Below are positions 1-25,652 of a stretch of DNA of 64,000 nucleotides, piece by piece. Position numbers and translations under genes: made by a program. The notes beneath the pieces are model-generated. The model saw nothing but the letters and a program-made list of their open reading frames with translations. It did not search any database and was not told the origin of the DNA. The DNA comes from a virus: IMG/VR virus record IMGVR_UViG_3300045988_117314, positions 1 to 64,000 of that record; one strand, written 5' to 3'. Within the stretch, counting starts at the first letter, position 1. Each line of letters opens with the position of its first letter.

Positions 1-150
1 AGGATTGCAGTGCTTTAAAACAGCATTCTGTAGGTTCTTCCAACAAGATTAAGGATTGCAGTGCTTTAAAACAGCATTCTGTAGGTTCTTCAAACAAGAT
101 TAAGACTTACAGCGTTTTTAAAACAGTATTCTGTAGGTAAGAGTTAAGGA
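1..150. repeat. tandem direct repeat, ~51-bp unit x ~2.8 (1-51 and 52-102 near-identical; 103-~150 degenerate)
   Basis: Read directly: AGGATTGCAGTGCTTTAAAACAGCATTCTGTAGGTTCTTC[C/A]AACAAGATTAAG repeated head-to-tail. The array abuts the window edge, so more copies may lie upstream. Confidence 0.8.
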
Positions 151-208
151 CTGCATTATGTGAGTATTTTTTTCAATCGGAATGTATAACAATTAAAACA
201 TAAACAAC

Positions 209-490
209 ATGAACGTATATGACTTTGCGCCTGACTTAGATTTGAGTAAGGAGGGAGAAGGTTCTATTTTTGGGGTGAAAGGAATAGAAGACGGTGATGG
301 TATAGTATATGCTAAGGTAGTTAGCTGTGCAGAAGTTAAGGATTACAGTTGTGAGGGGTGTATTTTTAATGATTGTTATAAGAATAAATGTTTATTATCG
401 CGTAGTGTTAGTTGTGTAGATGGAGACTGGCTTTGTAGGTACGAACAGGCTGCCATAGAGGGGGGGGGAGTAGGCGGCGCCTTGGGCTAA
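209..490 (+). CDS. small Cys-rich protein (CEGCIFND motif); member of a 3-gene paralog family (209, 1912, 28842)
   Basis: ATG at 209. SCEGCIFNDCYKNKC motif shared with 28842..29051 and, more weakly, 1912..2160. The C-terminus is Gly-rich and runs into a GC-rich patch. Confidence 0.5.
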   Translation: MNVYDFAPDLDLSKEGEGSIFGVKGIEDGDGIVYAKVVSCAEVKDYSCEGCIFNDCYKNKCLLSRSVSCVDGDWLCRYEQAAIEGGGVGGALG

Positions 491-505
491 GGCCTGCGGT
501 TGTAG

Positions 506-829
506 GTGGAACGTAGTTCGGAGCAGATCCGGGACAGTTTATTGTGGAACGTAAAAAGAAAAAAGATGGAAAGAACAATACATTATATTTGGATAAATTG
601 GATATCTTATACAGGTTCGAAAAGTAGTAGACTAATAAGCAACAGGTCTATGCCGGTATCAGATGCCAAAGAGATGATATTAAGAACGAGTGCTAAAGAA
701 TTGCTTAAACACAGACCGAGTTGGTTAAAGGACTGTGTTCGTATTAGTGTAAGCGCACAGGATATTACGACCGGAGAGATACTGTATAGAAGAACTATAA
801 ACATAAAGAAGAAGGAGGAAATAATATGA
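506..829 (+). CDS. hypothetical protein
   Basis: Six-frame ORF whose stop overlaps the next start as ATGA (826-829), suggesting translational coupling. Start uncertain; an internal ATG at 566 is possible. Confidence 0.3.
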   Translation: MERSSEQIRDSLLWNVKRKKMERTIHYIWINWISYTGSKSSRLISNRSMPVSDAKEMILRTSAKELLKHRPSWLKDCVRISVSAQDITTGEILYRRTINIKKKEEII

Positions 830-906
830 AAAAGGCATTTAAGATATTTTCTATTATGTTTGTCATAGAAATAGTGCTGATAGCTATTTTAGACGCTATG
901 GCGTGA
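826..906 (+). CDS. small hydrophobic peptide (26 aa, MKKAFKIFSIMFVIEIVLIAILDAMA)
   Basis: Strong SD (GAAGGAGGAAATAAT) directly upstream of ATG 826. ATGA overlap with the upstream ORF. Single predicted TM segment. Confidence 0.35.
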   Translation: MKKAFKIFSIMFVIEIVLIAILDAMA

Positions 907-944
907 GAAGAATTTTCTTCATTAATTTTCTTATGCTTTAGACA

Positions 945-976
945 AAGTGCTCCCGTCTGCGAAGATCGGAGCACTT
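945..976 (+). other. perfect 9-bp stem hairpin (AAGTGCTCC/GGAGCACTT) with 14-nt loop CGTCTGCGAAGATC
   Basis: Inverted repeat read directly. Loop core GTCTGCGAAGAT (955-966) is identical to the loop of the terminator hairpin at 5816-5848. Followed by GCTTTAT, a weak U-tract. Confidence 0.5.
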
Positions 977-1002
977 GCTTTATGGGATTCATGGTGCGGT
1001 AG

Positions 1003-1029
1003 GTCGGTTCGATTCCGGCGATCTCACAC
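1003..1029 (+). ncRNA. tRNA-like 3' element 1: T-arm-like GTCGG-TTCGATT-CCGGC plus acceptor-3'-like tail GATCTCACACA; no canonical cloverleaf found upstream
   Basis: GGTTCGATTCC T-loop signature on the + strand. A manual fold fails to find matching acceptor-5', D or anticodon arms within 70-95 nt. Paralogous to the element at 1867-1893. Confidence 0.3.
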
Positions 1030-1057
1030 AACATTAAAAACAAAGGAGGAAAGAAAA

Positions 1058-1405
1058 ATGAAAGACGGAATTGTATTACACCCAGAGTATGGAGTTAATC
1101 CATCCATAGAAATATGTATAGTATGCGGTGAAGAGATGGGGATTGCTTTATTAGGAAATGGGATTAAAGGGCAGGCGCCGCATCATATATGCACGGGAGA
1201 AATATGTGACAATTGCAAAAAGATAATAGACGAAGGAGGTTGTTTTATTATCGAAGTCGAGGATGGATCAGATCAAAAGAATCCGTATCGTACAGGGAGA
1301 TATTGCGCGATAAAGAAAGAAGCAGCAAAGAAAATACTTGGACAGGAACATAGTGTTGTGTACATGGAAAAGTCTGCGTACAGTCAAATAATACCACAAA
1401 AATAA
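1058..1405 (+). CDS. Cys-rich small protein (115 aa), possible zinc-binding
   Basis: ATG at 1058 preceded by SD AAAGGAGGA (1042-1050). Motifs CIVCGEE...HHICTGEICDNCKK. The ORF-track start at 947 would span the tRNA-like element, so the downstream ATG is preferred. Confidence 0.55.
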   Translation: MKDGIVLHPEYGVNPSIEICIVCGEEMGIALLGNGIKGQAPHHICTGEICDNCKKIIDEGGCFIIEVEDGSDQKNPYRTGRYCAIKKEAAKKILGQEHSVVYMEKSAYSQIIPQK

Positions 1406-1413
1406 AGAAAGAT

Positions 1414-1737
1414 ATGTTTACAAAAGAAGAGCGATTATTCATTTGGAAAAAGGTATATGAGAATATCGAAAGGTTAGAGGATGGGGATTATATATGCGTC
1501 ATGTTGAGAAATATAGTATTTAAGTTTTTCAGTACTCCTAAAAAAATAGAATCCTTTTATGGGCTATATTTAGATAAAATGGTGAAAACATATTTCCCGG
1601 AATTGGAGGAAAAGAAAAGTATGGCTACAGAACCAGAAGAAGAATGGAGGATATATGGATGGTTTGGCTGTATTAGTCCAGAAACGAAGGAGGTGAGGCT
1701 AAATATCATAAAAGACATTATAAAAGAATTAGAATAG
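1414..1737 (+). CDS. hypothetical protein (107 aa)
   Basis: ATG 1414; compact spacing after the preceding gene. Confidence 0.5.
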   Translation: MFTKEERLFIWKKVYENIERLEDGDYICVMLRNIVFKFFSTPKKIESFYGLYLDKMVKTYFPELEEKKSMATEPEEEWRIYGWFGCISPETKEVRLNIIKDIIKELE

Positions 1738-1866
1738 TATTTTTGTTAATCTATTTTATTCATCAAATTAAGTTTTGGGTTTTGGCATGTCGGTTCGTGA
1801 GAATAGGCATGTCTATTTCTGTATCATAGAGGGGGTGACGCGGCGTGCCGGTATGTATGTGCCGGT

Positions 1867-1893
1867 CCTGGTTCGATTCTGGGTATCTCACAA
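1867..1893 (+). ncRNA. tRNA-like 3' element 2: CCTGG-TTCGATT-CTGGG plus tail TATCTCACAAAC; preceded by a GC-rich segment with direct repeats GTGCCGG x2 and GGCATGTC x2
   Basis: Shares GGTTCGATTCYGG..ATCTCACA with element 1. About 97 nt back to a possible GTGAGA acceptor-5' partner (1797-1802), which is too long for a standard tRNA. Fold not canonical. Confidence 0.3.
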
Positions 1894-1911
1894 ACAATAA
1901 AGCATAATCAT

Positions 1912-2160
1912 ATGGAAGTAATAACATTTGGTCCAGACATGGATCTATCTTCTAAAGAAGTAGGAGATGTATTTAGATTAAAATTGTATGGCATAGAGTA
2001 TGATGTCAAAGTAGTTGGTGACGAAGAAGATCTTGATATGTCTTGCAAAGATTGCGTCTTCTTTAACAACACCGGACGGTGTTCACTCTCAGAATCGCAA
2101 GACTGGTGCCTAAAAAAGCAAGTTATTTACTGTAAAATAAGACATGATGGAAGAATTTAA
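1912..2160 (+). CDS. small Cys-rich protein, paralog of 209..490 and 28842..29051
   Basis: ATG 1912, 19 nt after tRNA-like element 2. Motif SCKDCVFFNNTGRCS aligns with CEGCIFND(C/H). Confidence 0.5.
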   Translation: MEVITFGPDMDLSSKEVGDVFRLKLYGIEYDVKVVGDEEDLDMSCKDCVFFNNTGRCSLSESQDWCLKKQVIYCKIRHDGRI

Positions 2161-2335
2161 TACGAAAGACGCCAATTTCTTGTGGTGTCAAATTGGTAGG
2201 ATTGACGGGGGGATAGAAACTCTGAACCGTATCGGAGGAGAGATGCCGGAAATCATAGCCGGAGTGCTAAAAAGAATAAGAGACGATATAGATAAGTTTG
2301 TAGACAATAAAACGAAAAATTATGAGAATATATAG
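2144..2335 (+). CDS. hypothetical protein (63 aa)
   Basis: ORF overlaps the upstream stop; same strand as its neighbours. Confidence 0.35.
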   Translation: MMEEFNTKDANFLWCQIGRIDGGIETLNRIGGEMPEIIAGVLKRIRDDIDKFVDNKTKNYENI

Positions 2336-2522
2336 GAATGATATTATAAAGGCGTCAGCGATAAGCACAGACGACGACAGAGGTTTGTTGTTGTGTTCAA
2401 TAACAGATTCAGGGTTTACGTCTATAGCGAGCGTGATATCGGCTGTTAAAAACAAGCTACCAAACAAAGATCATAAGAAGATGGTGTTTGAAATCTTGAA
2501 TGATACGAAAAAAGAGTACTGA
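2322..2522 (+). CDS. hypothetical protein (66 aa)
   Basis: ORF in frame-consistent tight packing. Confidence 0.3.
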   Translation: MRIYRNDIIKASAISTDDDRGLLLCSITDSGFTSIASVISAVKNKLPNKDHKKMVFEILNDTKKEY

Positions 2523-2639
2523 CGATATAACAATTGTGGGACAAAAGTATTGTAATAAAGAGCAGAAAACAATATGTTTATGTAATGTTAGTTTTTTCAT
2601 TTTTATTGAAAGGAGTGCCGGCCTGTGAAGGTATGCGCT

Positions 2640-2660
2640 CTTTGTATTTGTATAATGAAT
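2640..2660 (+). promoter_or_regulatory. candidate sigma70-type -10 element TATAAT (2651-2656) with TG immediately upstream
   Basis: TTGTATAAT lies 19 nt upstream of ATG 2675, in a ~150-bp AT-rich gap. There is no good -35 hexamer. Confidence 0.25.
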
Positions 2661-2674
2661 AGAACGATAATAAT

Positions 2675-2929
2675 ATGACAGATAATAACATAGATGTGAA
2701 TATCGTACCTATAAGGAATGGTGCGAAACGAGTTGTGGTATCATATTACCATTATTCACGCAAGGATAAAAATCATATGAGTTCTCAAACGGATTACGTG
2801 TGGGAAACAAAGAATGAAGAAATGTTTAAATACTTTGAGGCCAGGAGGACAAAAGTATTTTATAGTCAGATTCGTGCCATGTGTAGATTCTATGGCAAGA
2901 AAAATGTACGTAAATACAAAAAGTTATGA
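2675..2929 (+). CDS. hypothetical protein (84 aa)
   Basis: ATG 2675; ATGA overlap with the next gene at 2926-2929. Confidence 0.45.
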   Translation: MTDNNIDVNIVPIRNGAKRVVVSYYHYSRKDKNHMSSQTDYVWETKNEEMFKYFEARRTKVFYSQIRAMCRFYGKKNVRKYKKL

Positions 2930-3735
2930 TATTAAAAACGACAACCAACGAATTTTGTTTTATTAACGTAAGTTTTTATGAAACAGTAGCAGACCCGCGT
3001 CATTTCTTTTCACAGGAATATGATGAGATGCCGGAATATGAGGATGAATCAGATTTTGATTTTGATTCTTATTGTAATGCGTTCATGCCTTATGTGCAAG
3101 AATGGGCGGACAAGGTTAAAGAACGTCTTTTAGTATATGGTGTAAAGGATATAAAGGTAACATCAGTCGGACGGCCAAGAGAGTATAACTATGGTACTGA
3201 TTGGATGGAGGTAGAGGTGGAGTTCTGTGATGGGTGGCGACAGGCGATATTATCCAACATTGGTAAGATAATCAATGATGATAGGTGTAGAAAATATGCT
3301 GAGGTAAATTATAAATCAGTTCAGGGTTACATATTTTTCGGGCCTGAAGATCTAAAGGAGTTTGAGAAAGAAATAATAGAAAAGAATCCAAATTCAGGAT
3401 ATGATCCAGCAGTGCTATTAAATATGTATCTAACTTTGGCTTTTGTAAAAGAATTTGGGTTCGTAGCTGAAGATGCGTGGCATGATGTAGTAGCGGAAGC
3501 CTTTCATTATCTACAATATCATAATTTCGCAACAACGGAAACGTTTATACCGGAAGGTTCGGAGTATTTATTCAATGACGTGCATACGGCAGAAGCCGAC
3601 GAATTATATCATCATGTCCTGGATAAATTCGGATGGGCGTGGCGTGATCCGAAATATAAGTCAGAAACAGAATTATGCGCAATGTTAAAATGGGCAAAAG
3701 AAAAAGGCTTGACCATTGAAGAGTTAAGTATTTAA
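2926..3735 (+). CDS. hypothetical protein (269 aa), acidic N-terminal region
   Basis: Long ORF, ATG 2926, coupled to the upstream gene. Confidence 0.6.
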   Translation: MILKTTTNEFCFINVSFYETVADPRHFFSQEYDEMPEYEDESDFDFDSYCNAFMPYVQEWADKVKERLLVYGVKDIKVTSVGRPREYNYGTDWMEVEVEFCDGWRQAILSNIGKIINDDRCRKYAEVNYKSVQGYIFFGPEDLKEFEKEIIEKNPNSGYDPAVLLNMYLTLAFVKEFGFVAEDAWHDVVAEAFHYLQYHNFATTETFIPEGSEYLFNDVHTAEADELYHHVLDKFGWAWRDPKYKSETELCAMLKWAKEKGLTIEELSI

Positions 3736-3798: not shown

Positions 3799-4047
3799 AT
3801 GAAAAAAGAAGAGATTCAAACTATTTTATACACAATCAAAGAAGGAGACAGTATTAAGATCAAAGTACAAGACAAAAGTGAAGAGATAAGATTGCGGGAT
3901 CATGTAAGAAGAGTACAGAAATACGGATACAGGTTTTGTTTGTCTCATTTACATGATGGAATTTTCTATCTGGAGAAGTTGGAAGAGGGAGATAAAGATA
4001 AATACTATAGAGTAATAAACAGAGGAAATGGAAAGACCGGAGTATAA
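3799..4047 (+). CDS. hypothetical protein (82 aa)
   Basis: The ORF-track start at 3763 is GTG. The first ATG (3799, MKKEEIQ...) is preferred. Confidence 0.45.
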   Translation: MKKEEIQTILYTIKEGDSIKIKVQDKSEEIRLRDHVRRVQKYGYRFCLSHLHDGIFYLEKLEEGDKDKYYRVINRGNGKTGV

Positions 4048-4321
4048 TAAGCTACGTAAAATGGCTAAGACTACTCCAGGTCTGATAGTGGACGAGGCGC
4101 AAAACATGATGCGTGTATCGCTATACGATAATGGGGAACTTAAGAAGGTGGTAGTGGTAATGAAATGCGATTCTTTTTTACAGTCAAAAAGTAACATAGA
4201 AAAGATAATGTTATTATCATCTTCTATAGAAGATAGAAAAAACAAAGAAAAAAATAAAACAAAATCAGAAAATGAACAGAATAACAAAAATAAGAGAAGA
4301 GATAGGAGGAAAACAGGTTGA
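4028..4321 (+). CDS. hypothetical protein with Lys/Asn-rich C-terminal tail
   Basis: ATG 4028 with SD AGAGGA. Same orientation as the whole module. Confidence 0.35.
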   Translation: MERPEYNKLRKMAKTTPGLIVDEAQNMMRVSLYDNGELKKVVVVMKCDSFLQSKSNIEKIMLLSSSIEDRKNKEKNKTKSENEQNNKNKRRDRRKTG

Positions 4322-4655
4322 TTTAACCTTTTACGGGCGCTTTTGCAGCCTTATCGAAGGTGATAGGAAGATAATACTAAGGGCGATAAAAAACGGTCGT
4401 AAAAAAGGCGTAATCGGAGCCATTCAGCCTGGGAGACATGATAGAATTTGGACCACATGGTCTATTGCTTTTGATGATCTGAAGGTAGGGGATACAGTAG
4501 AGTTCACTACATCTGGAAAATATAATCCCGGATTTCATACTACGGAGACGTATGTAGGATGTGTAGAATGGATAAAAGGATCGGAATGTGCGATAAAAAC
4601 CGGCAATGGAATGGCGGTAGTATTAATTAAACACGTGGAAAGGGTGGTAAAATGA
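4272..4655 (+). CDS. hypothetical protein (127 aa)
   Basis: ATG 4272; ATGA coupling to the next gene at 4652. Confidence 0.5.
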   Translation: MNRITKIREEIGGKQVDLTFYGRFCSLIEGDRKIILRAIKNGRKKGVIGAIQPGRHDRIWTTWSIAFDDLKVGDTVEFTTSGKYNPGFHTTETYVGCVEWIKGSECAIKTGNGMAVVLIKHVERVVK

Positions 4656-7178: not shown

Positions 7179-7658
7179 ATGAAGCTATTATACTTAGTAG
7201 AATCAGGAAAATCGAAGTTTCTTGTCTTCGACGAAATGCCTGATAAAATTAGCACAAAGTACGGAGATGATACCATTATTGGAAGGATAGGAGGTGTATT
7301 CTATGATTTCCTTGCAAAGAGAAATGAGAGAAGAGAAGCTTTCGGAGGTAGAAAGTTCGATATCGTACTTGACAACGGGGAGATAGAGAAGTGTGAAGGG
7401 CAATGGTGGGATGCGGTGACAGACAGAGCAAGAGAAGAATTGGAAAAAGAGGGAAATCCACTTTCTAAAATGGTACTGATTGGTGTTTCTTCAGTAGATA
7501 GATTATTGGATTGCTATGTGTATTATGGATTATGGGCATCCGAAAGTAAGATTGAAGAAATGATAGCTGACTACAAAGGTCGTATATATGAGTATTACGA
7601 ATTTAAGGAAGAGGTCATTAATAAGATAAATGAGACCCTTAGAAAATCATATATTTAA
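7179..7658 (+). CDS. hypothetical protein (159 aa)
   Basis: ATG 7179. Confidence 0.55.
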   Translation: MKLLYLVESGKSKFLVFDEMPDKISTKYGDDTIIGRIGGVFYDFLAKRNERREAFGGRKFDIVLDNGEIEKCEGQWWDAVTDRAREELEKEGNPLSKMVLIGVSSVDRLLDCYVYYGLWASESKIEEMIADYKGRIYEYYEFKEEVINKINETLRKSYI

Positions 7659-7688
7659 TCTTGGAAAGAACGGATAATACGATCTGGG

Positions 7689-7934
7689 ATGAGACAGAAA
7701 GGGAAAGACGTGTTTGAATCACCGGATGGATTGTATATTGAGATGGTATATGAGAACAAAGCGTTTGTGCCATATAGACCTATAAAAGAAATCCAGGATT
7801 TACCTATAGATGCAAAGTATATACCGCTTCTTACAAGGATATTTGGAAAGAACATACTTGCGGAGATAGGAGGATATAAGATATTTATAACTACTGGAAA
7901 ATATGCTGTGAATTTTTGGTGCTGGAAAAAGTAA
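7689..7934 (+). CDS. hypothetical protein (81 aa)
   Basis: ATG 7689. Confidence 0.4.
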   Translation: MRQKGKDVFESPDGLYIEMVYENKAFVPYRPIKEIQDLPIDAKYIPLLTRIFGKNILAEIGGYKIFITTGKYAVNFWCWKK

Positions 7935-9736: not shown

Positions 9737-10129
9737 ATGAAAACACAAGAAGAATATGCACGTGAGATAGACAAGATTGTTATCCGAGATTTAGATACTT
9801 GTCGGAATGATTGGTTTGAAGTTGATAAAAAGATATTTATGCGACCAGAAAATGAAAATAAGGCATTTATTTTGGGAACCCGGAAGACCGGATGTGATTT
9901 AATAATACTGGGTGGCACTAATTGTGATGAAGGTAGTATGGATTGGCTTTTTGGGAGTCTTGGCAATGAAAATTTCTATGTATGTAAGCCGCTATCTTTC
10001 TATAAATCACAACAAGAAATCCAGAAAGTAAATCCGCTTTATGCTTTCAAGGTGGCCACTGCTTATTTTAGAGAACAAGGGAAGGTTCCGGTATTTGAAG
10101 ATAGTAACTGTAGATTAATAAAACTATGA
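9737..10129 (+). CDS. hypothetical protein (130 aa)
   Basis: ATG 9737; ATGA coupling at 10126. Confidence 0.5.
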   Translation: MKTQEEYAREIDKIVIRDLDTCRNDWFEVDKKIFMRPENENKAFILGTRKTGCDLIILGGTNCDEGSMDWLFGSLGNENFYVCKPLSFYKSQQEIQKVNPLYAFKVATAYFREQGKVPVFEDSNCRLIKL

Positions 10130-15010: not shown

Positions 15011-15265
15011 ATGAACGAAGTAATTTTAAGCAACATGTTAGGATGTCAGACATATTGTATATCAGACAGTCCTTCGAATAGATACTGTCTTATTGGACCT
15101 ATTGAGTGCAATGAGAAGTTAATAGAAGTGTTTAAGAAGGGGATAACAGTAAAACTCAAATACGTGGAAAAACGGGTCCTGGATGCATTTACGGACAACG
15201 GAATCGACCTGAGTAATTACACTCATTGTATTATTGTGAAGCGGAATTTTTATCTCGCTTGGTAA
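15011..15265 (+). CDS. hypothetical protein (84 aa)
   Basis: ATG 15011. Confidence 0.4.
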   Translation: MNEVILSNMLGCQTYCISDSPSNRYCLIGPIECNEKLIEVFKKGITVKLKYVEKRVLDAFTDNGIDLSNYTHCIIVKRNFYLAW

Positions 15266-15283
15266 CGGCAAAACATAAACAAT

Positions 15284-15946
15284 ATGAATAATTTTGTAAT
15301 AGATACTCCAGATAATTTCTGGCAAATAAGATGGCTTGACAAGTATATGGAAGGCCACAAAGGATTCATAGCTGGTGGATGTTTTAAAAATATCCTTTCC
15401 GGAGAAAGAGTAAAAGACATTGATATTTTCTTTGAAAGTGAAAGCGATTTTCAGGAGGCTATTGATTCGTTCAATGATGAAAAACATCAGAAAGAAGGAT
15501 GGAAATTTAAGTACAGAAATGAGAAGGTATGTGCGTTCCAGAAAGAGGGAGAAAAGGTATGGATAGAGTTCATAGAGTCAGAGTTTGGAAAGCCGAAAGA
15601 GATTCTTAGGAGCTTCGATTTTACTGTGACAAAAATGGCTTACTATAAGGAGCCCAAATACGAAGAAAAAGAAGATGATTATTTTCCATTCTCATCTGCA
15701 AGTATAGTAGCATACGAGTACAAACTACTCTATCATGAGAAATTCTTCGAACATCTTCATATGAAGAGGCTGGTTATTGACGAAAATATCCCTTTTCCAG
15801 TAAGTACATGGGAGCGCTCATATCGGTATAAAGGATATGGTTACAATATGTGTAGGGAGACAAAGAAAAAACTTCTACAGGCTCTTAAAGGTGTAAACGT
15901 AGAGGAGGAAGATGTATCTTTGTACACTACTGGAGGATGGGATTAA
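15284..15946 (+). CDS. Pol-beta-superfamily nucleotidyltransferase resembling the head domain of class II CCA-adding enzyme / poly(A) polymerase
   Basis: Motifs GFIAGGCFKNILSGERVKDIDIFF (compare GGaVRDlLLG..vKDiDi) and LRSFDFTVTKMA (compare RRDFTINAMA). At 220 aa it is much shorter than full CCA enzymes, so the call is by recalled motif only. Confidence 0.45.
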   Translation: MNNFVIDTPDNFWQIRWLDKYMEGHKGFIAGGCFKNILSGERVKDIDIFFESESDFQEAIDSFNDEKHQKEGWKFKYRNEKVCAFQKEGEKVWIEFIESEFGKPKEILRSFDFTVTKMAYYKEPKYEEKEDDYFPFSSASIVAYEYKLLYHEKFFEHLHMKRLVIDENIPFPVSTWERSYRYKGYGYNMCRETKKKLLQALKGVNVEEEDVSLYTTGGWD

Positions 15947-22596: not shown

Positions 22597-22756
22597 AATA
22601 AGAATAGAAGCTGACGATGAAACTATCTTTTATGCTCACATACAGAGAGAAAGTTATGGTAAGGATATAGCTATCGCAGTGAAAGATAGAGATAAAGATG
22701 AAGTGGAAACAGTGTTACATTGTATTAAAGAAGAATTGATTAGAGGAAGATCATGA
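22580..22756 (+). CDS. hypothetical small protein (58 aa)
   Basis: The ORF-track start is TTG; ATG 22580. Confidence 0.3.
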   Translation: MRKLYKIRIEADDETIFYAHIQRESYGKDIAIAVKDRDKDEVETVLHCIKEELIRGRS

Positions 22757-24069
22757 AAGAGAAAATAAAAATATTGACAGATTTAGGATTTGTCCCTATG
22801 GTGGAAGGAGAAGGAAATACGTTGTTTAGAATGAACGATGTTGTGATGTCGGTGTCAGATCCTAACCAAACACCAGAGCAGTTGAAGAAGGAGGTTATGT
22901 CTTTAATAAAGAACAGAGACATAGCAGAAAGAGGCGGACAGGTTCCAGTAGTTGAAGAGCCGGCGCCTGAGACAGAGCAGGCCCAGAAGGAGGAACCGGA
23001 AGCTCCGGCGGAGGAAGCCGCTCCTAACCCTGGAGAAGAGGATTCGAATCCGTTTACAGAAAATCAGGAAACGTTAGAACCGTTTTATATCTGTGATGAG
23101 TTAAAGAAGATTGAGACTCCCAAATTCGTAAGATTGACATTAGACGACAATCGTTTTTATGTAAGGAAGATGGATGATGGGACAGCCAAGATATATGCTT
23201 CGGTAACAACCTTAATCAAAGACGGATATGTAGATGATAAGACAGCACTTCAGGAATGGAAGCAAGAGATAAAGATGCTTGGTCGCAATCCAGAAGAGAT
23301 AGCGCAGTATGAAGCCGATAAGGGAACGATCATGCACTACCTATACGGATTGTACTTGACAGGTAGAGATATGGTCTTAAATCGAAATTTTATAGTTAAG
23401 ACAGTGCAAGAAGGTAAGCTGAAGATATCGAAGAAAAATCTTGACCGATTTTTTAACAGCATAGATGATCTTGACGATATGATTGTCAGGGTCATGAAGT
23501 TTGCCAAATTCTGTTCTGATTACAAGGTGAAACCGATGATGATAGAAAGAATCCTTTCTTTAGAGGATTACCTTGTAGCAACACCTATTGATGCGATGGT
23601 TAAAATGACATTCAAATACAAAGAAGAAGGTTATTTTGGAGCCGTATATCAAAGGGCTACAGGGCAGTTCAAAAAAGGCGATCCGAAGAAGGAAGTAAGA
23701 GAAGTGGAGAAGGAAGAAGTGGTCATTCTTGACTTTAAATCGGGAGGTATATGGGAATCATACGCATTCCAATTAGAAGCTGAAAGAAGAATGGTTAAAG
23801 CATGGTACGGAATTGACGCGCGTATTATGAACTTTTCTCCAAAAAGCACGAGCAGTAAAGGATATACGCTGAAAGAATGGACAGAAGATAGTGTAGCACT
23901 TGAAAAGGCGGACTGTGTGTTCCAACAAGGGATGTTGAATCACCTTAGAAAAGACAAGAGGTTCAAAGTGAGAAAAGGAGTGCTGAATATCAATAAGCCT
24001 TACAATGAAGAGGATCATATTGTTGTATATGATATTGCTGAGGAAATGTCTAAAAGATTCGTAATATGA
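22753..24069 (+). CDS. protein with C-terminal PD-(D/E)xK (RecB/Cas4-like) nuclease motifs; Pro/Glu-rich linker after N-terminal domain
   Basis: ATG 22753 with SD GAGGAAGA. VVILDFKSGG...YAFQLEAE resembles the hhDYKTG and QLxxY nuclease motifs. The N-terminal half is of unknown function. Confidence 0.5.
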   Translation: MKEKIKILTDLGFVPMVEGEGNTLFRMNDVVMSVSDPNQTPEQLKKEVMSLIKNRDIAERGGQVPVVEEPAPETEQAQKEEPEAPAEEAAPNPGEEDSNPFTENQETLEPFYICDELKKIETPKFVRLTLDDNRFYVRKMDDGTAKIYASVTTLIKDGYVDDKTALQEWKQEIKMLGRNPEEIAQYEADKGTIMHYLYGLYLTGRDMVLNRNFIVKTVQEGKLKISKKNLDRFFNSIDDLDDMIVRVMKFAKFCSDYKVKPMMIERILSLEDYLVATPIDAMVKMTFKYKEEGYFGAVYQRATGQFKKGDPKKEVREVEKEEVVILDFKSGGIWESYAFQLEAERRMVKAWYGIDARIMNFSPKSTSSKGYTLKEWTEDSVALEKADCVFQQGMLNHLRKDKRFKVRKGVLNINKPYNEEDHIVVYDIAEEMSKRFVI

Positions 24070-24299
24070 GTGATATTGTTATTCCTGAAGGAGATTATGT
24101 AGAAATCGTAAAACCGATATGTATAAATCCTTTTGGTGATTATTTTATTAACATCAAAGGGGGGTCAAGATTAAGATTATCGAAAGATTTGAAAATAGGG
24201 GATAAGTATGCAATATGCATACTTACATCTTACGAGAAATATGGCAAGACTGTTAATGTGATAATGCCTATACTGGTTAGAAACACAAGAAGAGTATGA
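24066..24299 (+). CDS. hypothetical protein (77 aa)
   Basis: ATG 24066, ATGA-coupled. Confidence 0.4.
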   Translation: MSDIVIPEGDYVEIVKPICINPFGDYFINIKGGSRLRLSKDLKIGDKYAICILTSYEKYGKTVNVIMPILVRNTRRV

Positions 24300-24646
24300 A
24301 AAGAAAAATTAGAAGAACCGGGGAGATAATAGACATAATCACCTTCAGCGGCTCAACTACAAGAAGCGACTGTGACAAAATACAATTCTATGACAGCAAA
24401 GGAAGTGTGATAAATGAGAGTTTAAATTATTATCTCGATACCCTTCCTGTGGATGATGAAAACAAAGACGTGGATTGGGAACAACGTAGATTCGATCTTG
24501 TTAAGGCTTATTCTATTGAGTTTATCAAAACACTGCATAGAAAAGGAGAGATAGATTGCGGAGTATATGTACCAGATGTGGTGTCATGGTCTATAACTAT
24601 AGCAGATAGAATCATAGAAGCAATGAGAGGAGTTCAAAATGCTTGA
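24296..24646 (+). CDS. hypothetical protein (116 aa)
   Basis: ATG 24296. Confidence 0.45.
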   Translation: MKRKIRRTGEIIDIITFSGSTTRSDCDKIQFYDSKGSVINESLNYYLDTLPVDDENKDVDWEQRRFDLVKAYSIEFIKTLHRKGEIDCGVYVPDVVSWSITIADRIIEAMRGVQNA

Positions 24647-25652
24647 TTTCAGAAGATACGAAAACGTACCTCGGTTTCAACTTGACCGCAGGCCCGGAAG
24701 GAGCCGACTGAAGCTAACCTGCCCGGCTTGCGGAAAAAGCCGGTGCCTCACTCCTTATATTGATGTGGCAACAGGTCAGGTTGTTGGCAACGAGTTCGGA
24801 AGATGCGATCATGAACGGACTTGCGGTTACGATAAACGACCTACTGGTAAGGATGTAGGTGACAAAGATCTTTGGATTTCAGGAAACAAGTGTATAAGAG
24901 CTTATCGCCCTCCTGTAAATCCTGACGTTGTAAATTACATACCTTTTAGCGAGTTTGAGAGGACTGTGGTTCCAGACGATAGAAACACTGTATTTAGATT
25001 TTTATCGTCTCTATGGGGAAAAGAAAGGGTGTCTGATGTATTCAGGAGGTATCATGTAGGAACAATGGACTTATGGGGATGGAAAGGATGTTGTATATTC
25101 TGGCAGATAGACAAAGATTTTGTATGTAGAACCGGCAAGATCATGGACTTTTATATAAAAACCGACGGCCAGGGGAATGAGATTGATGTAAAAAGAGTGA
25201 AGGAAAAAGACGGTGACAATGAGCGGCCTCATGTTATGTTTTATCACTCGTTGCATGCAAGAGACTTCTTGTTTAGACAATGCCTGTTCGGAGAGCATCT
25301 TCTAAGCCAGTATCCGGATAAGGTGGTTAATTTGGTGGAATCAGAAAAGACGGCTATTATATGCGCTGTGAATAAACCGGATGAGTTATTTGTAGCTACC
25401 GGTGGGTTGCAGAATCTAAGACCGGAAGTGATAGATGTTTTAAAAGATAGAAAGACCGTAGCTTTTCCGGACAAAGGACAAGCATTTGAGACATGGAGTA
25501 AAAAGATAGATGGGATGATGATGAAGTCAAGGATAAAAGTATCGGACTATCTTCAAAATGTTGAAAATGTAGGAGACGGAGATGATGTGGCAGATTTGAT
25601 AATCAATAACAAGGTAAAAGAAAAATATCATGAGCCTGGACGTTTATATTAA
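24639..25652 (+). CDS. putative DNA primase-like protein: N-terminal zinc finger plus TOPRIM-like C-terminal region
   Basis: CPACGKSRCL...CDHERTC zinc-binding cluster. C-terminal VESEKTAIICAV...ATGG...FPDKGQ resembles a TOPRIM E...D..D layout. Lies just upstream of the DnaB-family helicase. Confidence 0.45.
   Translation: MLDFRRYENVPRFQLDRRPGRSRLKLTCPACGKSRCLTPYIDVATGQVVGNEFGRCDHERTCGYDKRPTGKDVGDKDLWISGNKCIRAYRPPVNPDVVNYIPFSEFERTVVPDDRNTVFRFLSSLWGKERVSDVFRRYHVGTMDLWGWKGCCIFWQIDKDFVCRTGKIMDFYIKTDGQGNEIDVKRVKEKDGDNERPHVMFYHSLHARDFLFRQCLFGEHLLSQYPDKVVNLVESEKTAIICAVNKPDELFVATGGLQNLRPEVIDVLKDRKTVAFPDKGQAFETWSKKIDGMMMKSRIKVSDYLQNVENVGDGDDVADLIINNKVKEKYHEPGRLY

Follow-up and report, generated by a model that had tools for sequence, protein, structure and literature searches.

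The acceptor/T-arm minihelix of transfer RNA (tRNA) is the classical minimal substrate of RNase P, RNase Z, the CCA-adding enzyme and alanyl-tRNA synthetase (AlaRS). Transfer-messenger RNA (tmRNA) is also an RNase P substrate, and tRNA-like processing signals occur in mitochondrial tRNA punctuation, the MALAT1/MEN-beta mascRNA, the tRNA-microRNA (miRNA) units of gammaherpesviruses, and the C4 RNA of phages P1 and P7, which is cut by RNase P. The 3′ tRNA-like structures of plant viruses such as turnip yellow mosaic virus (TYMV) and brome mosaic virus (BMV) are 3′-terminal and pseudoknotted, end in CC(A), and are aminoacylated. Here, two tRNA-like elements are described in the first 64,000 nucleotides of the IMG/VR virus record IMGVR_UViG_3300045988_117314 (this 64-kb stretch is called the window). 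Each element is a sense-strand RNA module that consists of a GNRA-capped hairpin followed by an armless tRNA-like minihelix. With their relatives, the two elements form a previously undescribed family of armless modules, similar to tRNA or to the tRNA-like domain (TLD) of tmRNA, in the early region of epsilon crAss-like phages; the structure of the modules is well supported, and their function is a proposal.

crAss-like phages are among the most abundant human gut viruses, and their early gene expression is largely uncharacterised. The first 20 kb of the window align with csAssE-Sib (151 kb, human gut; GenBank OR575929, named crAssE-Sib in its genome paper) over 73% of their length at 90.5% identity. 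The genome paper assigns this phage to the epsilon group of crAss-like phages and lists six tRNAs and no other RNA. Both elements map to the end of the csAssE-Sib genome, at the start of a long run of small rightward genes; in the window, genes run rightward from position 1 to ~42 kb, followed by leftward structural genes. The elements have no annotation in the csAssE-Sib GenBank record and no mention in its genome paper, no description of them was found in the literature on crAssE-Sib or on crAss-like phages with tmRNA, and the module has no Rfam family.

Architecture of the Two Elements

A preliminary description of this DNA had pointed to a near-identical T-loop and tail occurring twice. 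The 23-nt motif GGTTCGATTCYGGNNATCTCACA indeed has two copies in the window, both on the + strand (1006-1028 and 1870-1892); no further site appears when three mismatches are permitted, and 0 of 100 shuffled windows contained the motif (0 expected by chance). The covariance model R1, which was built from the minihelices, scores element 1 at 47.3 bits (E 1e-9) and element 2 at 88.4 bits (E 5e-20), and an unfiltered covariance-model scan of the whole window gave no third copy. The segments upstream of the tails had been regarded as different from each other and as unable to form D and anticodon arms. The absence of these arms stands, but the 5′ strand of the acceptor stem was overlooked: both upstream segments contain a GNRA hairpin (945-976; 1784-1813) and a pairing 5′ strand (983-989; 1831-1837).

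The hairpin, H1, follows a common plan in both elements: above the lower stem and a small internal loop stands an upper stem of 4 bp, which opens with a G.U pair and is capped by a GNRA tetraloop. In the minihelix that follows, a 7-bp acceptor stem in the exact tRNA register is stacked on a canonical T-arm, and the D and anticodon arms are missing. The minihelix is followed by a discriminator C and then by an A-rich trailer that reaches the start codon.

In element 1, H1 was located by folding at 945-976 on the + strand (AAGUGCUCC-C-GUCU-GCGA-AGAU-C-GGAGCACUU). Its lower stem AAGUGCUCC/GGAGCACUU is separated by a 1x1 C/C internal loop from the upper stem GUCU/AGAU, and the GNRA loop GCGA lies at 959-962. 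The minihelix (983-1027, +), identified by register pairing and by R1, contains the acceptor strands UGGGAUU (983-989) and GAUCUCA (1020-1026), which form the pairs U1-A72, G2-C71, G3.U70, G4-C69, A5-U68, U6-A67 and U7.G66, with C1027 as the discriminator. A 13-nt linker (990-1002) connects the 5′ strand with the T-arm GUCGG-UUCGAUU-CCGGC (1003-1019). The A-rich trailer and translation initiation region ACAACAUUAAAAACAAAGGAGGAAAGAAAA (1028-1057, +) leads to the ATG at 1058, and its conservation stops near 1040. The sequence UAAAACAAnAGGAGG is found ~8 nt 5′ of the ATG in several family members. Upstream of H1, a conserved AT-rich leader (TTCAT...TTAGACA; 907-944, +) is partly alignable with the leader of element 2; its TTCAT motif lies 13-22 nt 5′ of the hairpin in every family member inspected, and the leader is possibly a promoter or a nuclease site.

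In element 2, the conserved AT-rich leader (1729-1783, +) belongs to a block that begins 8 nt before the stop codon of the open reading frame (ORF) 1414-1737. H1 was again located by folding (1784-1813, +; GGCAUGUC-G-GUUC-GUGA-GAAU-A-GGCAUGUC); the stem GGCAUGUC/GGCAUGUC includes G.U pairs, and a 1x1 G/A internal loop and the upper stem GUUC/GAAU lead to the GNRA loop GUGA (1797-1800). A middle segment, UAUUUCUGUAUCAUAGA (1814-1830, +), is specific to element 2: neither element 1 nor the distant element-2-type orthologues have it. With weak support, this segment may fold into a small hairpin. The minihelix (1831-1891, +), found by R1 and register pairing, has the layout of the tmRNA TLD. Its acceptor strands, GGGGGUG (1831-1837; GGGGAUG in most relatives) and UAUCUCA (1884-1890), form six pairs and a G1.A72 mismatch, and the discriminator is C1891. 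Between the 5′ strand and the T-arm CCUGG-UUCGAUU-CUGGG (1867-1883) lie a 9-nt loop (1838-1846) and an 8-bp H2-like hairpin (1847-1866). The A-rich trailer AAACAAUAAAGCAUAAUCAU (1892-1911, +) precedes the ATG at 1912, and the part CAAACAAUAAAAC is kept even by distant orthologues. Both window copies contain G3.U70. Two further statements of the preliminary description agree with these structures, namely that neither tail encodes CCA and that the elements end shortly 5′ of a start codon (19-30 nt before ATG 1058 and 1912).

A Shine-Dalgarno-like AGGAGG stretch is seen ~8 nt 5′ of the ATG after several elements (1041-1057 in the window, and in the trailers of contigs L218, L219 and L216). Most other early genes of this presumed Bacteroidota-infecting phage lack a Shine-Dalgarno sequence of the AGGAGG type.

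Conservation and Variation in Close Relatives

The motif recurs in related phages. An exact-pattern scan of IMG/VR gave at least 119 loci with at least 192 copies, usually two per contig and 0.5-2.2 kb apart. In more than 120 related epsilon crAss-like phage contigs, the T-loop and the 3′ strand are almost invariant and the adjacent linker is hypervariable. For element 1, 123 copies were retrieved via its hairpin and 5′ strand, i.e., independently of the tail motif. The T-loop, the 3′ strands of the T-stem and acceptor stem, and the first trailer bases vary in 0-4 of these copies (0-2 for the T-loop and 3′ strand taken by themselves), and the linker positions 5-12 nt away vary in 31-57. At each of two T-stem positions, 24 copies differ through UC/CU exchanges facing GG. 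The pattern of conservation is similar among 97 element-2 copies from contigs retrieved through element 1. Per-site variation is below 3% in the blocks ~826-1040 and 1729-1901, compared with 10-40% in the flanking coding sequence. These distributions indicate that the T-loop and the 3′ strand are under strong, position-specific purifying selection.

Changes in the stems of close relatives include compensatory exchanges in the element-1 hairpin (A-U/G-C in 15 sequences and U-A/C-G in 3) and one-sided changes in the element-2 hairpin, all of which preserve pairing (among 43 sequences, 19 show G.U/G-C and 5 show U.G/U-A). In the T-stem, G-C is changed to A-U, U.G to U-A, and G.U/U.G to G-C/U-A. 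As for the element-2 acceptor stem, G4-C69 is replaced by A4-U69 in one contig (L015), G3.U70 is replaced by A3-U70 together with G4-C69 by G4.U69 in three contigs, and A5-U68 is replaced by G5.U68 in the window itself. The formal covariation signal of this shallow set is weak, with 95% of cells pairing and only two pairs changed on both sides.

Rearrangements were also observed. Two relatives (L038 and L070) have lost the H2-like hairpin of element 2 by deletion between GCCGGT repeats, leaving an element-1-like structure. In L144, positions 7684-7820 hold a chimera of an element-1 5′ part and an element-2 3′ part from which the intervening genes are deleted, a structure pointing to recombination at the shared T-loop, and in L064 the element-2 hairpin is duplicated in tandem (569-730). 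Judged by these cases, the element repeats are recombination hot spots.

Covariation among Distant Relatives

Distant contigs were fetched through homologues of the neighbouring 269-aa protein (2926-3735), whose identity falls to 47%, and were then scanned with R1 and with a pairing scanner. R1 matched an element-1-type orthologue (7430-7481) and an element-2-type orthologue (9913-9980) in contig L216. The scanner, which required a 5-bp T-stem, a TTCRANY loop and at least six of seven acceptor pairs in register, gave 16 matches in 238 kb of related DNA against 0.2 expected. All 16 have the orientation of the genes and an ATG 4-38 nt further downstream; two of them, which represent one TTCAACT-loop site present in both L216 and L217, seem to be false positives. 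The acceptor stems among the remaining matches are UGGGACU/AGUCUCC, UUUCGUU/AACGGAG, UUCCGCU/GGCGGAA, UUUCGCU/AGCGGAA, GGACUUG/CAAGUCC and UGGUUGU/GCAACCU. A relaxed minihelix scan was at noise level (36 matches against 23.8 expected), and no element was seen in the retrieved DNA of L211-L215 and L220-L221. Exact DNA patterns that excluded the known variants returned the same phage group only, besides a 58-nt candidate in L159.

The element-1-type orthologue of L216 differs from element 1 by U6-A67 to C-G and G49-C65 to U-A. It retains the hairpin top GUCU-GNRA-AGAU, the spacer CUUUA and the linker CAUGGUG, and the lower stem of its hairpin is fully replaced (GGCGUCC/GGGCGCC). The distant element-2-type orthologues have acceptor stems that are wholly different from that of element 2 yet fully paired (UUUCGUU/AACGGAG and UUCCGCU/GGCGGAA). 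In L216 (9913), L218 and L219, they keep the trailer CAAACAAUAAAAC and the position in front of the 2926-3735 homologue, and their T-arm, UCUGG-UUCGAGU-CCAGG, is near the UCUGG-UUCGAUU-CCAGG of element-2 variants. The element-2 hairpin design is found in L216 (9887), L218 and L219 as well, with loops GCGA, GUGA and GAGA. Because the hairpin, the linker or trailer, the T-arm and the gene position are kept, the orthology of the first four acceptor types listed above does not depend on pairing. Among distant relatives, the lower stems of the hairpins are completely replaced and the design is maintained.

When 18 distinct minihelices, a set partly picked by the pairing-demanding scanner, were aligned without linkers, 94.9% of cells paired compared with 67.6% after shuffling, and none of 500 shuffles reached 94.9%. 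Eleven of the 12 pairs are changed on both sides in this set, and slid registers pair in 33-60% of cells. The T-loop GUUCGAnUC is invariant in the family alignment. Taken from these alignments, and directly from the orthologues of L216 (7430 and 9913), L218 and L219, which were recognised without recourse to pairing, the fold is best regarded as maintained by selection with compensatory change. In element 2, G.U pairs account for two of five T-stem pairs and three of eight hairpin pairs; these would be mismatches in DNA and become C.A on the other strand. Because the stems use G.U pairs, and substitutions pass through G.U on the + strand only, the selected molecule is likely to be the sense-strand RNA rather than a DNA hairpin. 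The tail octamer is not conserved in distant orthologues. G3.U70 is also not kept, being replaced by U3.G70 or C3-G70 in distant element-2-type orthologues; the constraint common to the family is therefore on shape and not on alanine identity.

A third type of minihelix is present in contig L222 (6462-6525; UGGUUGU/GCAACCU, T-arm UCCGG-UUCGAUU-CUGGA), 2.1 kb upstream of element 1. L222 is a closer relative in which the neighbouring protein is 62% identical and elements 1 and 2 are identical, and the corresponding site would precede the start of the window.

Relation to tRNA, tmRNA and Other Known RNAs

As tRNAs do, the elements have a canonical T-arm and a contiguous 7-bp acceptor stem. Nevertheless, the view of the preliminary description that they are tRNA-like and yet not tRNAs is upheld, and ARAGORN and the covariance models gave no confident full-length tRNA. 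ARAGORN called no tRNA and no standard or permuted tmRNA in the 64 kb, and Rfam gave no family match in the window at gathering scores. At E<=10, with laxer filters on short stretches, Rfam returned nothing beyond noise: a fragment of a lncRNA, and an insignificant alignment to tRNA-Sec (10.8 bits, E 7.9) whose span is exactly 1831-1891. The tRNA model RF00005 gave no match at its gathering score or at E<=10, and the tmRNA model RF00023 gave none at E<=10 on 850-2000 or 1822-1900. With ARAGORN and Rfam negative, an ordinary, unusual, suppressor or intron-containing tRNA and a standard or permuted tmRNA were rejected. A cloverleaf is not feasible with only 13 nt (element 1), or 9 nt and one hairpin (element 2), between the acceptor 5′ strand and the T-arm. 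A tmRNA is contradicted by the lack of an mRNA-like region, a tag frame, pseudoknots and a model match, and by an acceptor 5′ strand only 13-29 nt from the T-arm. The ORF at 826-906 was rejected as a tag frame, being an ATG-initiated peptide gene with protein-level constraint that lies outside the acceptor stem, and a far-upstream candidate for the acceptor strand (775-781) sits in non-conserved sequence. A Y RNA for a phage Rsr was likewise rejected: RF02553 gave no match, the order of parts differs, and the candidate YrlA of the relative is located beside rsr, ~75 kb away.

Several alternative pairings were considered. For pairing of the tail with GUGAGA, the partner of element 1 is at 903-908 and that of element 2 in the hairpin loop (1797-1802), which are non-homologous places; this pairing gives no G3.U70 and is lost in one relative (GTAATA). 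The minimum-free-energy pairings GUGCGGU/AUCUCAC (element 1) and GUGA/UCAC (element 2) are broken by frequent linker variants. An extended lower stem in element 1 (933-988), proposed by RNAalifold, is accompanied by three one-sided transitions only, is not found in element 2, and competes with the conserved acceptor stem. The alternatives tail:GUGAGA, tail:GGUG and the extended lower stem all either suit a single paralogue or are disrupted by variation.

Proposed Function and Alternative Explanations

On comparative grounds, the elements are taken as established to be real, on the sense strand, with a fold under selection, directly upstream of start codons, and distinct from tRNA genes, tmRNA genes and att sites. 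For their function, tRNA-style punctuation of an early polycistronic mRNA by RNase P and RNase Z, with or without a role for the excised minihelix, is put first, tentatively and at somewhat less than an even chance. Among the candidates named in the preliminary description, a processing or stability signal fits the anatomy best, namely a covarying minihelix of ~12 bp (acceptor stem and T-arm) at a cistron border, on the sense strand and directly before a start codon; the cleavage, the transcription through the elements and the role of the nucleotidyltransferase discussed below are what we infer. In the proposed mechanism, the module would be transcribed within a rightward early polycistronic mRNA, as the gene orientation suggests. 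RNase P would cut 5′ of the acceptor stem (before U983 and G1831), so that the upstream cistron would end in the stable GNRA hairpin. A second cut, by RNase Z or a different 3′ endonuclease, would come after the discriminator (C1027 and C1891), freeing the downstream cistron with a short, unstructured, A-rich leader that would be good for translation initiation. The excised minihelix of 45-61 nt might receive CCA from a host enzyme or from a truncated class-II nucleotidyltransferase of the phage. If the module is such a signal, it would provide a testable handle on mRNA maturation in Bacteroidota-type hosts.

The nucleotidyltransferase gene (15284-15946, +) lies 14 kb downstream of the elements and encodes a 220-aa protein in which AlphaFold and Foldseek recognise the head and neck fold of class-II (A-adding or CCA-adding) enzymes. 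The AlphaFold model was built from a 32-sequence alignment with a mean predicted local distance difference test (pLDDT) value of 82.6, and the best Foldseek matches, to head and neck only, are the A-adding enzyme 4wc2 and the CCA-adding enzyme 5hc9 (E 3e-7 to 1e-6, query TM 0.54). The protein contains the motif GGCFKNILSGExVKDIDIFF; it has no sequence match in Pfam, NCBIfam or PDB, and its homologues carry PF26128. The likeness to CCA-adding enzymes claimed in the preliminary description consequently holds at the level of fold (Foldseek E 3e-7) and not at the level of sequence. That this enzyme is the partner of the elements is plausible but unsupported. At a TAA that interrupts the upstream part of its frame (15263-15265), homologues of 311 aa have Gln, presumably CAA, and the most populous clusters are of 220 aa; the TAA would either be read through or recoded, or represent a widespread nonsense polymorphism by which the gene is split.

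Several observations weigh against punctuation. Only two or three of dozens of early gene junctions carry an element, so such punctuation would not be general. The hairpin abuts the acceptor 5′ strand with zero spacer in distant element-2-type orthologues, an arrangement awkward for RNase P. Nuclease recognition alone does not account for how strongly the trailer and, in the hairpin, the G.U pair and the GNRA loop are conserved; together with the zero-spacer hairpins, this conservation implies that nuclease recognition would not be the whole story. Pairing itself has exceptions, namely G7.A66 in ~10 variants and an unpaired 1:72 in element 2 (G.A or A.A), and the use of the pairing-demanding scanner brings a selection bias into the covariation set. 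With regard to the enzyme, the nucleotidyltransferase lacks the body and tail domains, which measure the tRNA elbow, and its frame (15011-15946) extends 91 codons upstream through the single in-frame TAA.

The alternative that survives best, unlikely but deserving of attention, is that a stable mimic of tRNA or of the TLD, comprising hairpin and minihelix or the minihelix alone, is released and acts in trans. It could sequester tRNA-binding factors such as SmpB, EF-Tu, AlaRS, T-loop enzymes or tRNA-targeting defence nucleases, serving as their decoy or sponge; alternatively, once CCA had been added, the minihelix could accept alanine. The in-register G3.U70 of both window copies and acceptor strands (xGGGAUx/xAUCUCx) equal to those of phage tRNA-Ala and tmRNA suit such a role, as does element 2 by reproducing the TLD layout of a 7-bp acceptor stem, a 9-nt GG loop, an 8-bp helix and a T-arm. 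Parallels are offered by the stand-alone 64-nt TLD-only RNAs of other phages (53-67 bits; see below) and by the abundant early non-coding RNAs of phage phi14:2, which include a tmRNA; furthermore, a tRNA-nucleotidyltransferase fold is encoded in the window, and the close relative has Rsr/YrlA, a polynucleotide kinase and an NrnA-like enzyme. However, G3.U70 is not conserved (U3.G70, C3-G70 and, in one variant, G3-C70 occur), which rules out alanine identity as the conserved function. The elements have A at position 72 and C or G as the discriminator, they encode no CCA, and the UCGAC analogue of the D-loop is missing; no Rfam tmRNA match was obtained at E<=10, and a consensus scan detected no promoter or terminator belonging to the elements. 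Should this explanation hold, the excised RNA would represent a novel type of tRNA/tmRNA mimic. A wider proposal, a long shot by comparison, is that epsilon crAss-like phages, and possibly Crassvirales widely, excise armless mimics whose 3′ ends are finished by the phage's own nucleotidyltransferase, and that the resulting 45-110-nt RNAs, made up of the GNRA hairpin and the minihelix, act in trans on host translation or RNA surveillance, possibly by competing in TLD-like fashion with tmRNA-SmpB or EF-Tu or by misleading tRNA-targeting defence nucleases as decoys. If true, these RNAs would represent a new counter-defence or takeover class descended from tmRNA or tRNA-Ala.

An uncleaved cis-element of the 5′ untranslated or intercistronic region, whose fold is bound and not cut, is distinctly unlikely; it might act as a structural insulator, an mRNA stabiliser, a translational enhancer, a switch that responds to a ligand or protein, or a site bound by a protein of the phage or the host. 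The constant position 4-38 nt upstream of a start codon accords with this explanation, as do the conserved A-rich trailer, in which AGGAGG frequently stands ~8 nt from the ATG, and the hairpin, whose conserved G.U pair, internal loop and GNRA loop are typical of recognition or tertiary-contact motifs; the conserved leader 5′ of the hairpin would fit a promoter there that places the hairpin at the 5′ end of an mRNA. Nevertheless, Rfam gave no match to a riboswitch or leader family, none of the alternative pairings holds across the two paralogues, and a generic insulator needs no canonical GUUCGAUUC T-loop in the exact tRNA register.

Very improbable is a function at the DNA level, as an early promoter for a virion-packaged or host RNA polymerase (an N4-like hairpin) or as a protein-binding site; conserved promoters had also been a candidate of the preliminary description. 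The elements occur in two or three copies per genome, at the early end and in gene orientation, and a conserved loop and downstream sequence with a variable stem resembles the hairpin promoters of the N4 virion RNA polymerase. The virion RNA polymerase of crAss-like phages works on denatured DNA, an activity that also speaks for this explanation, and its early promoters are undescribed. However, the stems rest on the G.U pairs of + strand RNA mentioned above (two of five in the T-stem of element 2, three of eight in its hairpin), and a 7-bp stem split by 13-48 nt and kept by covariation is a feature of RNA. A sigma-70-type scan of window positions 1-3000 was at chance as well, with 12 sites against 12.1 expected, reading of the sequence found no Bacteroides-type -33/-7 motif common to both copies, and the tail octamer is lost in distant orthologues. 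A terminator scan of positions 1-3000 gave two terminator-like sites, neither at the elements, and no hairpin of an element is followed by a U-run.

That the elements are decaying remnants of a duplicated tRNA-Ala or mini-tmRNA, functionless or serving only as recombination homology, is barely credible. The idea of degenerate or truncated tRNA genes in the preliminary description may suit their origin, the acceptor stem being tRNA-Ala/tmRNA-like with position 72, the discriminator and CCA 'damaged' relative to tRNA-Ala, and the repeats do recombine (the L144 chimera, the L064 hairpin duplication and the L038/L070 hairpin deletions). It does not describe their present state, in which purifying selection is strong and highly position-specific, the GNRA hairpin is conserved too, and compensatory evolution keeps the fold where the neighbouring protein is ~50% identical.

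In phage attP sites, a T-arm together with the acceptor 3′ end is often taken from a tRNA gene or the ssrA gene of the host. Att-like partial tRNA 3′ ends, here for integration into a host tRNA or tmRNA gene, were the remaining candidate of the preliminary description; this explanation can be virtually dismissed because no bacterial tRNA gene has the 3′ end of the elements, an exact-match scan for GTTCGATTCYGGNNATCTCAC in one genome per each of 185,579 bacterial and archaeal species having returned 14 matches (13 by chance within unrelated coding sequence and one in a fragment of the window phage in a metagenome-assembled genome), and because the elements carry their own 5′ acceptor strand in two or three different copies per genome, prophage and integron finders gave no integration signal in the published analysis of crAssE-Sib, and none of the 206 annotated features in its record is an integrase.

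Neighbouring Genes and the Early Region

The preliminary description placed the elements in front of small Cys-rich genes, which is true in the window but not conserved among relatives. There, element 1 is followed by a Cys-rich gene of 113-115 aa or by an unrelated gene of 134 aa, and element 2 by one of three different genes; the differences stem from deletions at the trailer. An interchangeable downstream gene is what would be expected of a portable expression or processing module. In the window, the Cys-rich ORFs 209-490 and 1912-2160 are paralogues (40% identity over 67 aa, E 5e-9), and that at 209 has tandem repeats upstream in place of a tRNA-like element.

The upstream cistron of element 1 is a small ORF (826-906, +) within the same conserved block, encoding a 26-aa hydrophobic peptide (MKKAFKIFSIMFVIEIVLIAILDAMA). 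It has a strong Shine-Dalgarno sequence and a nucleotide conservation equal to that of element 1, and in a divergent allele synonymous changes exceed non-synonymous ones. Judged by this pattern, it is a genuine peptide gene, which may encode a small membrane peptide or be a type-I-toxin-like gene.

A 51-bp tandem repeat (2.7 copies, 90% matches) occupies window positions 1-138, extending to ~170, directly 5′ of the first early gene. Its counterpart in contig L120 (660-800) lies ~660 nt from the genome end of that relative. Each unit holds an imperfect inverted repeat (CAGUGCU...AGCAUUCUG), and the array could serve as a series of early promoters or operators, or as a feature of the genome terminus or of packaging.

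Outside the window, csAssE-Sib encodes Rsr/Ro60 (23091-24725), and 5′ of its rsr gene lie a tRNA-Tyr, a tRNA-Lys and a YrlA-like RNA (22601-22705), whose parts stand in the order customary for YrlA and whose 28.5 bits (E 0.005 in a 6-kb search) fall short of the gathering score of 69. The record further includes a polynucleotide kinase/phosphatase and an NrnA-like phosphodiesterase, and with Rsr, the YrlA-like RNA and the tRNAs they constitute an RNA-repair and surveillance gene set.

Comparison with Known Systems

The resemblance to tRNA is confined to the half of the molecule that processing enzymes read: the module is a compact, strongly selected RNA that retains exactly this half. The enzymes that modify the T-loop recognise this half as well. 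The T-arm is canonical (G53, T54 T55 C56 R57 A58, C61), the 7-bp acceptor stem is in register and followed by a discriminator, and the sequence is tRNA-Ala-like including G3.U70. In contrast to tRNA, a linker of 12-48 nt replaces the D and anticodon arms, and the elements cannot decode.

The likeness to the TLD of tmRNA is closer. In both, a 7-bp acceptor stem lies directly on a 5-bp T-arm with the loop UUCGAUU, there is no anticodon arm, and G3.U70 of the window copies matches the TLD acceptor strands GGGGAUG/CAUCUCx. In element 2, a 9-nt GG-containing loop and an 8-bp helix lie where the TLD has its D-loop analogue and H2, so that the order of parts is the same, the lengths are near-identical, and the acceptor strands are the same except at position 72; this helix is missing from element 1 and from two element-2 variants. 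Unlike the TLD, the elements have A72 (U1-A72 or G1.A72), a discriminator C, no CCA and no UCGAC D-analogue, carry an extra GNRA hairpin 5′ of the acceptor stem, and are embedded between cistrons instead of forming a stand-alone gene. Compared with whole tmRNA, they have no mRNA-like region, tag frame or pseudoknots, and G3.U70 is lost in their distant orthologues.

Stand-alone TLD-like RNAs were found with a pattern made from the acceptor strands and the T-loop in which the base after ATCTC was changed (ATCTCB, not ATCTCA). This pattern matched phage tRNA-Ala genes, tmRNA 3′ ends, and RNAs of ~64 nt in unrelated phage contigs. TLD-only RNAs are located in L169 (3082-3146), L173 (3502-3565) and L186 (1282-1347), and also in L168, L177, L178, L182, L188, L194 and L195. 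Rfam aligns them to tmRNA positions 1-374 with 312 internal positions deleted (53-67 bits); they encode CCA, at least one has a sigma-70-like promoter, and ARAGORN calls none. In L164 and L185, tRNA-Ala-like genes with a D arm and without an anticodon arm are likewise not called by ARAGORN. One TLD-only example reads GGGGAUG-CAUGGUAUCGA-[hairpin]-GAC-GGAGGUUCGAUUCCUCC-CAUCUCC-A-CCA, and such RNAs share GGGAU(U/G)CAUGGU with element 1 and score 22-38 bits with R1.

Among crAss-like phages, the Cellulophaga phage phi14:2 (NC_021806) has an early intergenic region that a 2020 preprint describes as a very abundant, highly transcribed non-coding RNA of unreported function. This region contains a tmRNA gene (4031-4500; ARAGORN) with the tag GSSVQKLAMVA-stop and no encoded CCA, which Rfam scores at 46 bits against a gathering score of 47 (E 7e-16). 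For RNAs related to tmRNA, this gene provides a precedent in the early region of a crAss-like phage. The early region of phi14:2 also holds a second T-arm-like hairpin (1826-1842) and, at 1772, a weak candidate for a minihelix. Together with the TLD-only mini-tmRNAs and the phi14:2 tmRNA, the modules hint at an under-appreciated repertoire of tmRNA-derived RNAs in phages.

YrlA (RF02553), the partner of Rsr/Ro60, is another phage-found tRNA mimic with a canonical T-arm. Its parts, located beside rsr, follow the order stem, T-arm, closed acceptor-like hairpin, D-arm and stem, whereas the elements have an open acceptor stem, the T-arm last and no D-arm. The tRNA-like structures of TYMV and BMV resemble the elements as viral RNAs that mimic the acceptor/T half for host enzymes; the elements differ from them in being internal, composed of simple helices, and devoid of CCA.

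With mitochondrial tRNA punctuation, mascRNA, the tRNA-miRNA units and C4 RNA, the elements share a tRNA shape at a unit border within a longer transcript, no encoded CCA, and a stable structure on the upstream 3′ end. Those systems have a fuller cloverleaf or proven cleavage, whereas the present modules are armless, coupled to a GNRA hairpin, and only predicted to be cleaved. If they do serve as punctuation signals, they would be the bacterial-virus counterpart of mitochondrial tRNA punctuation and of mascRNA.

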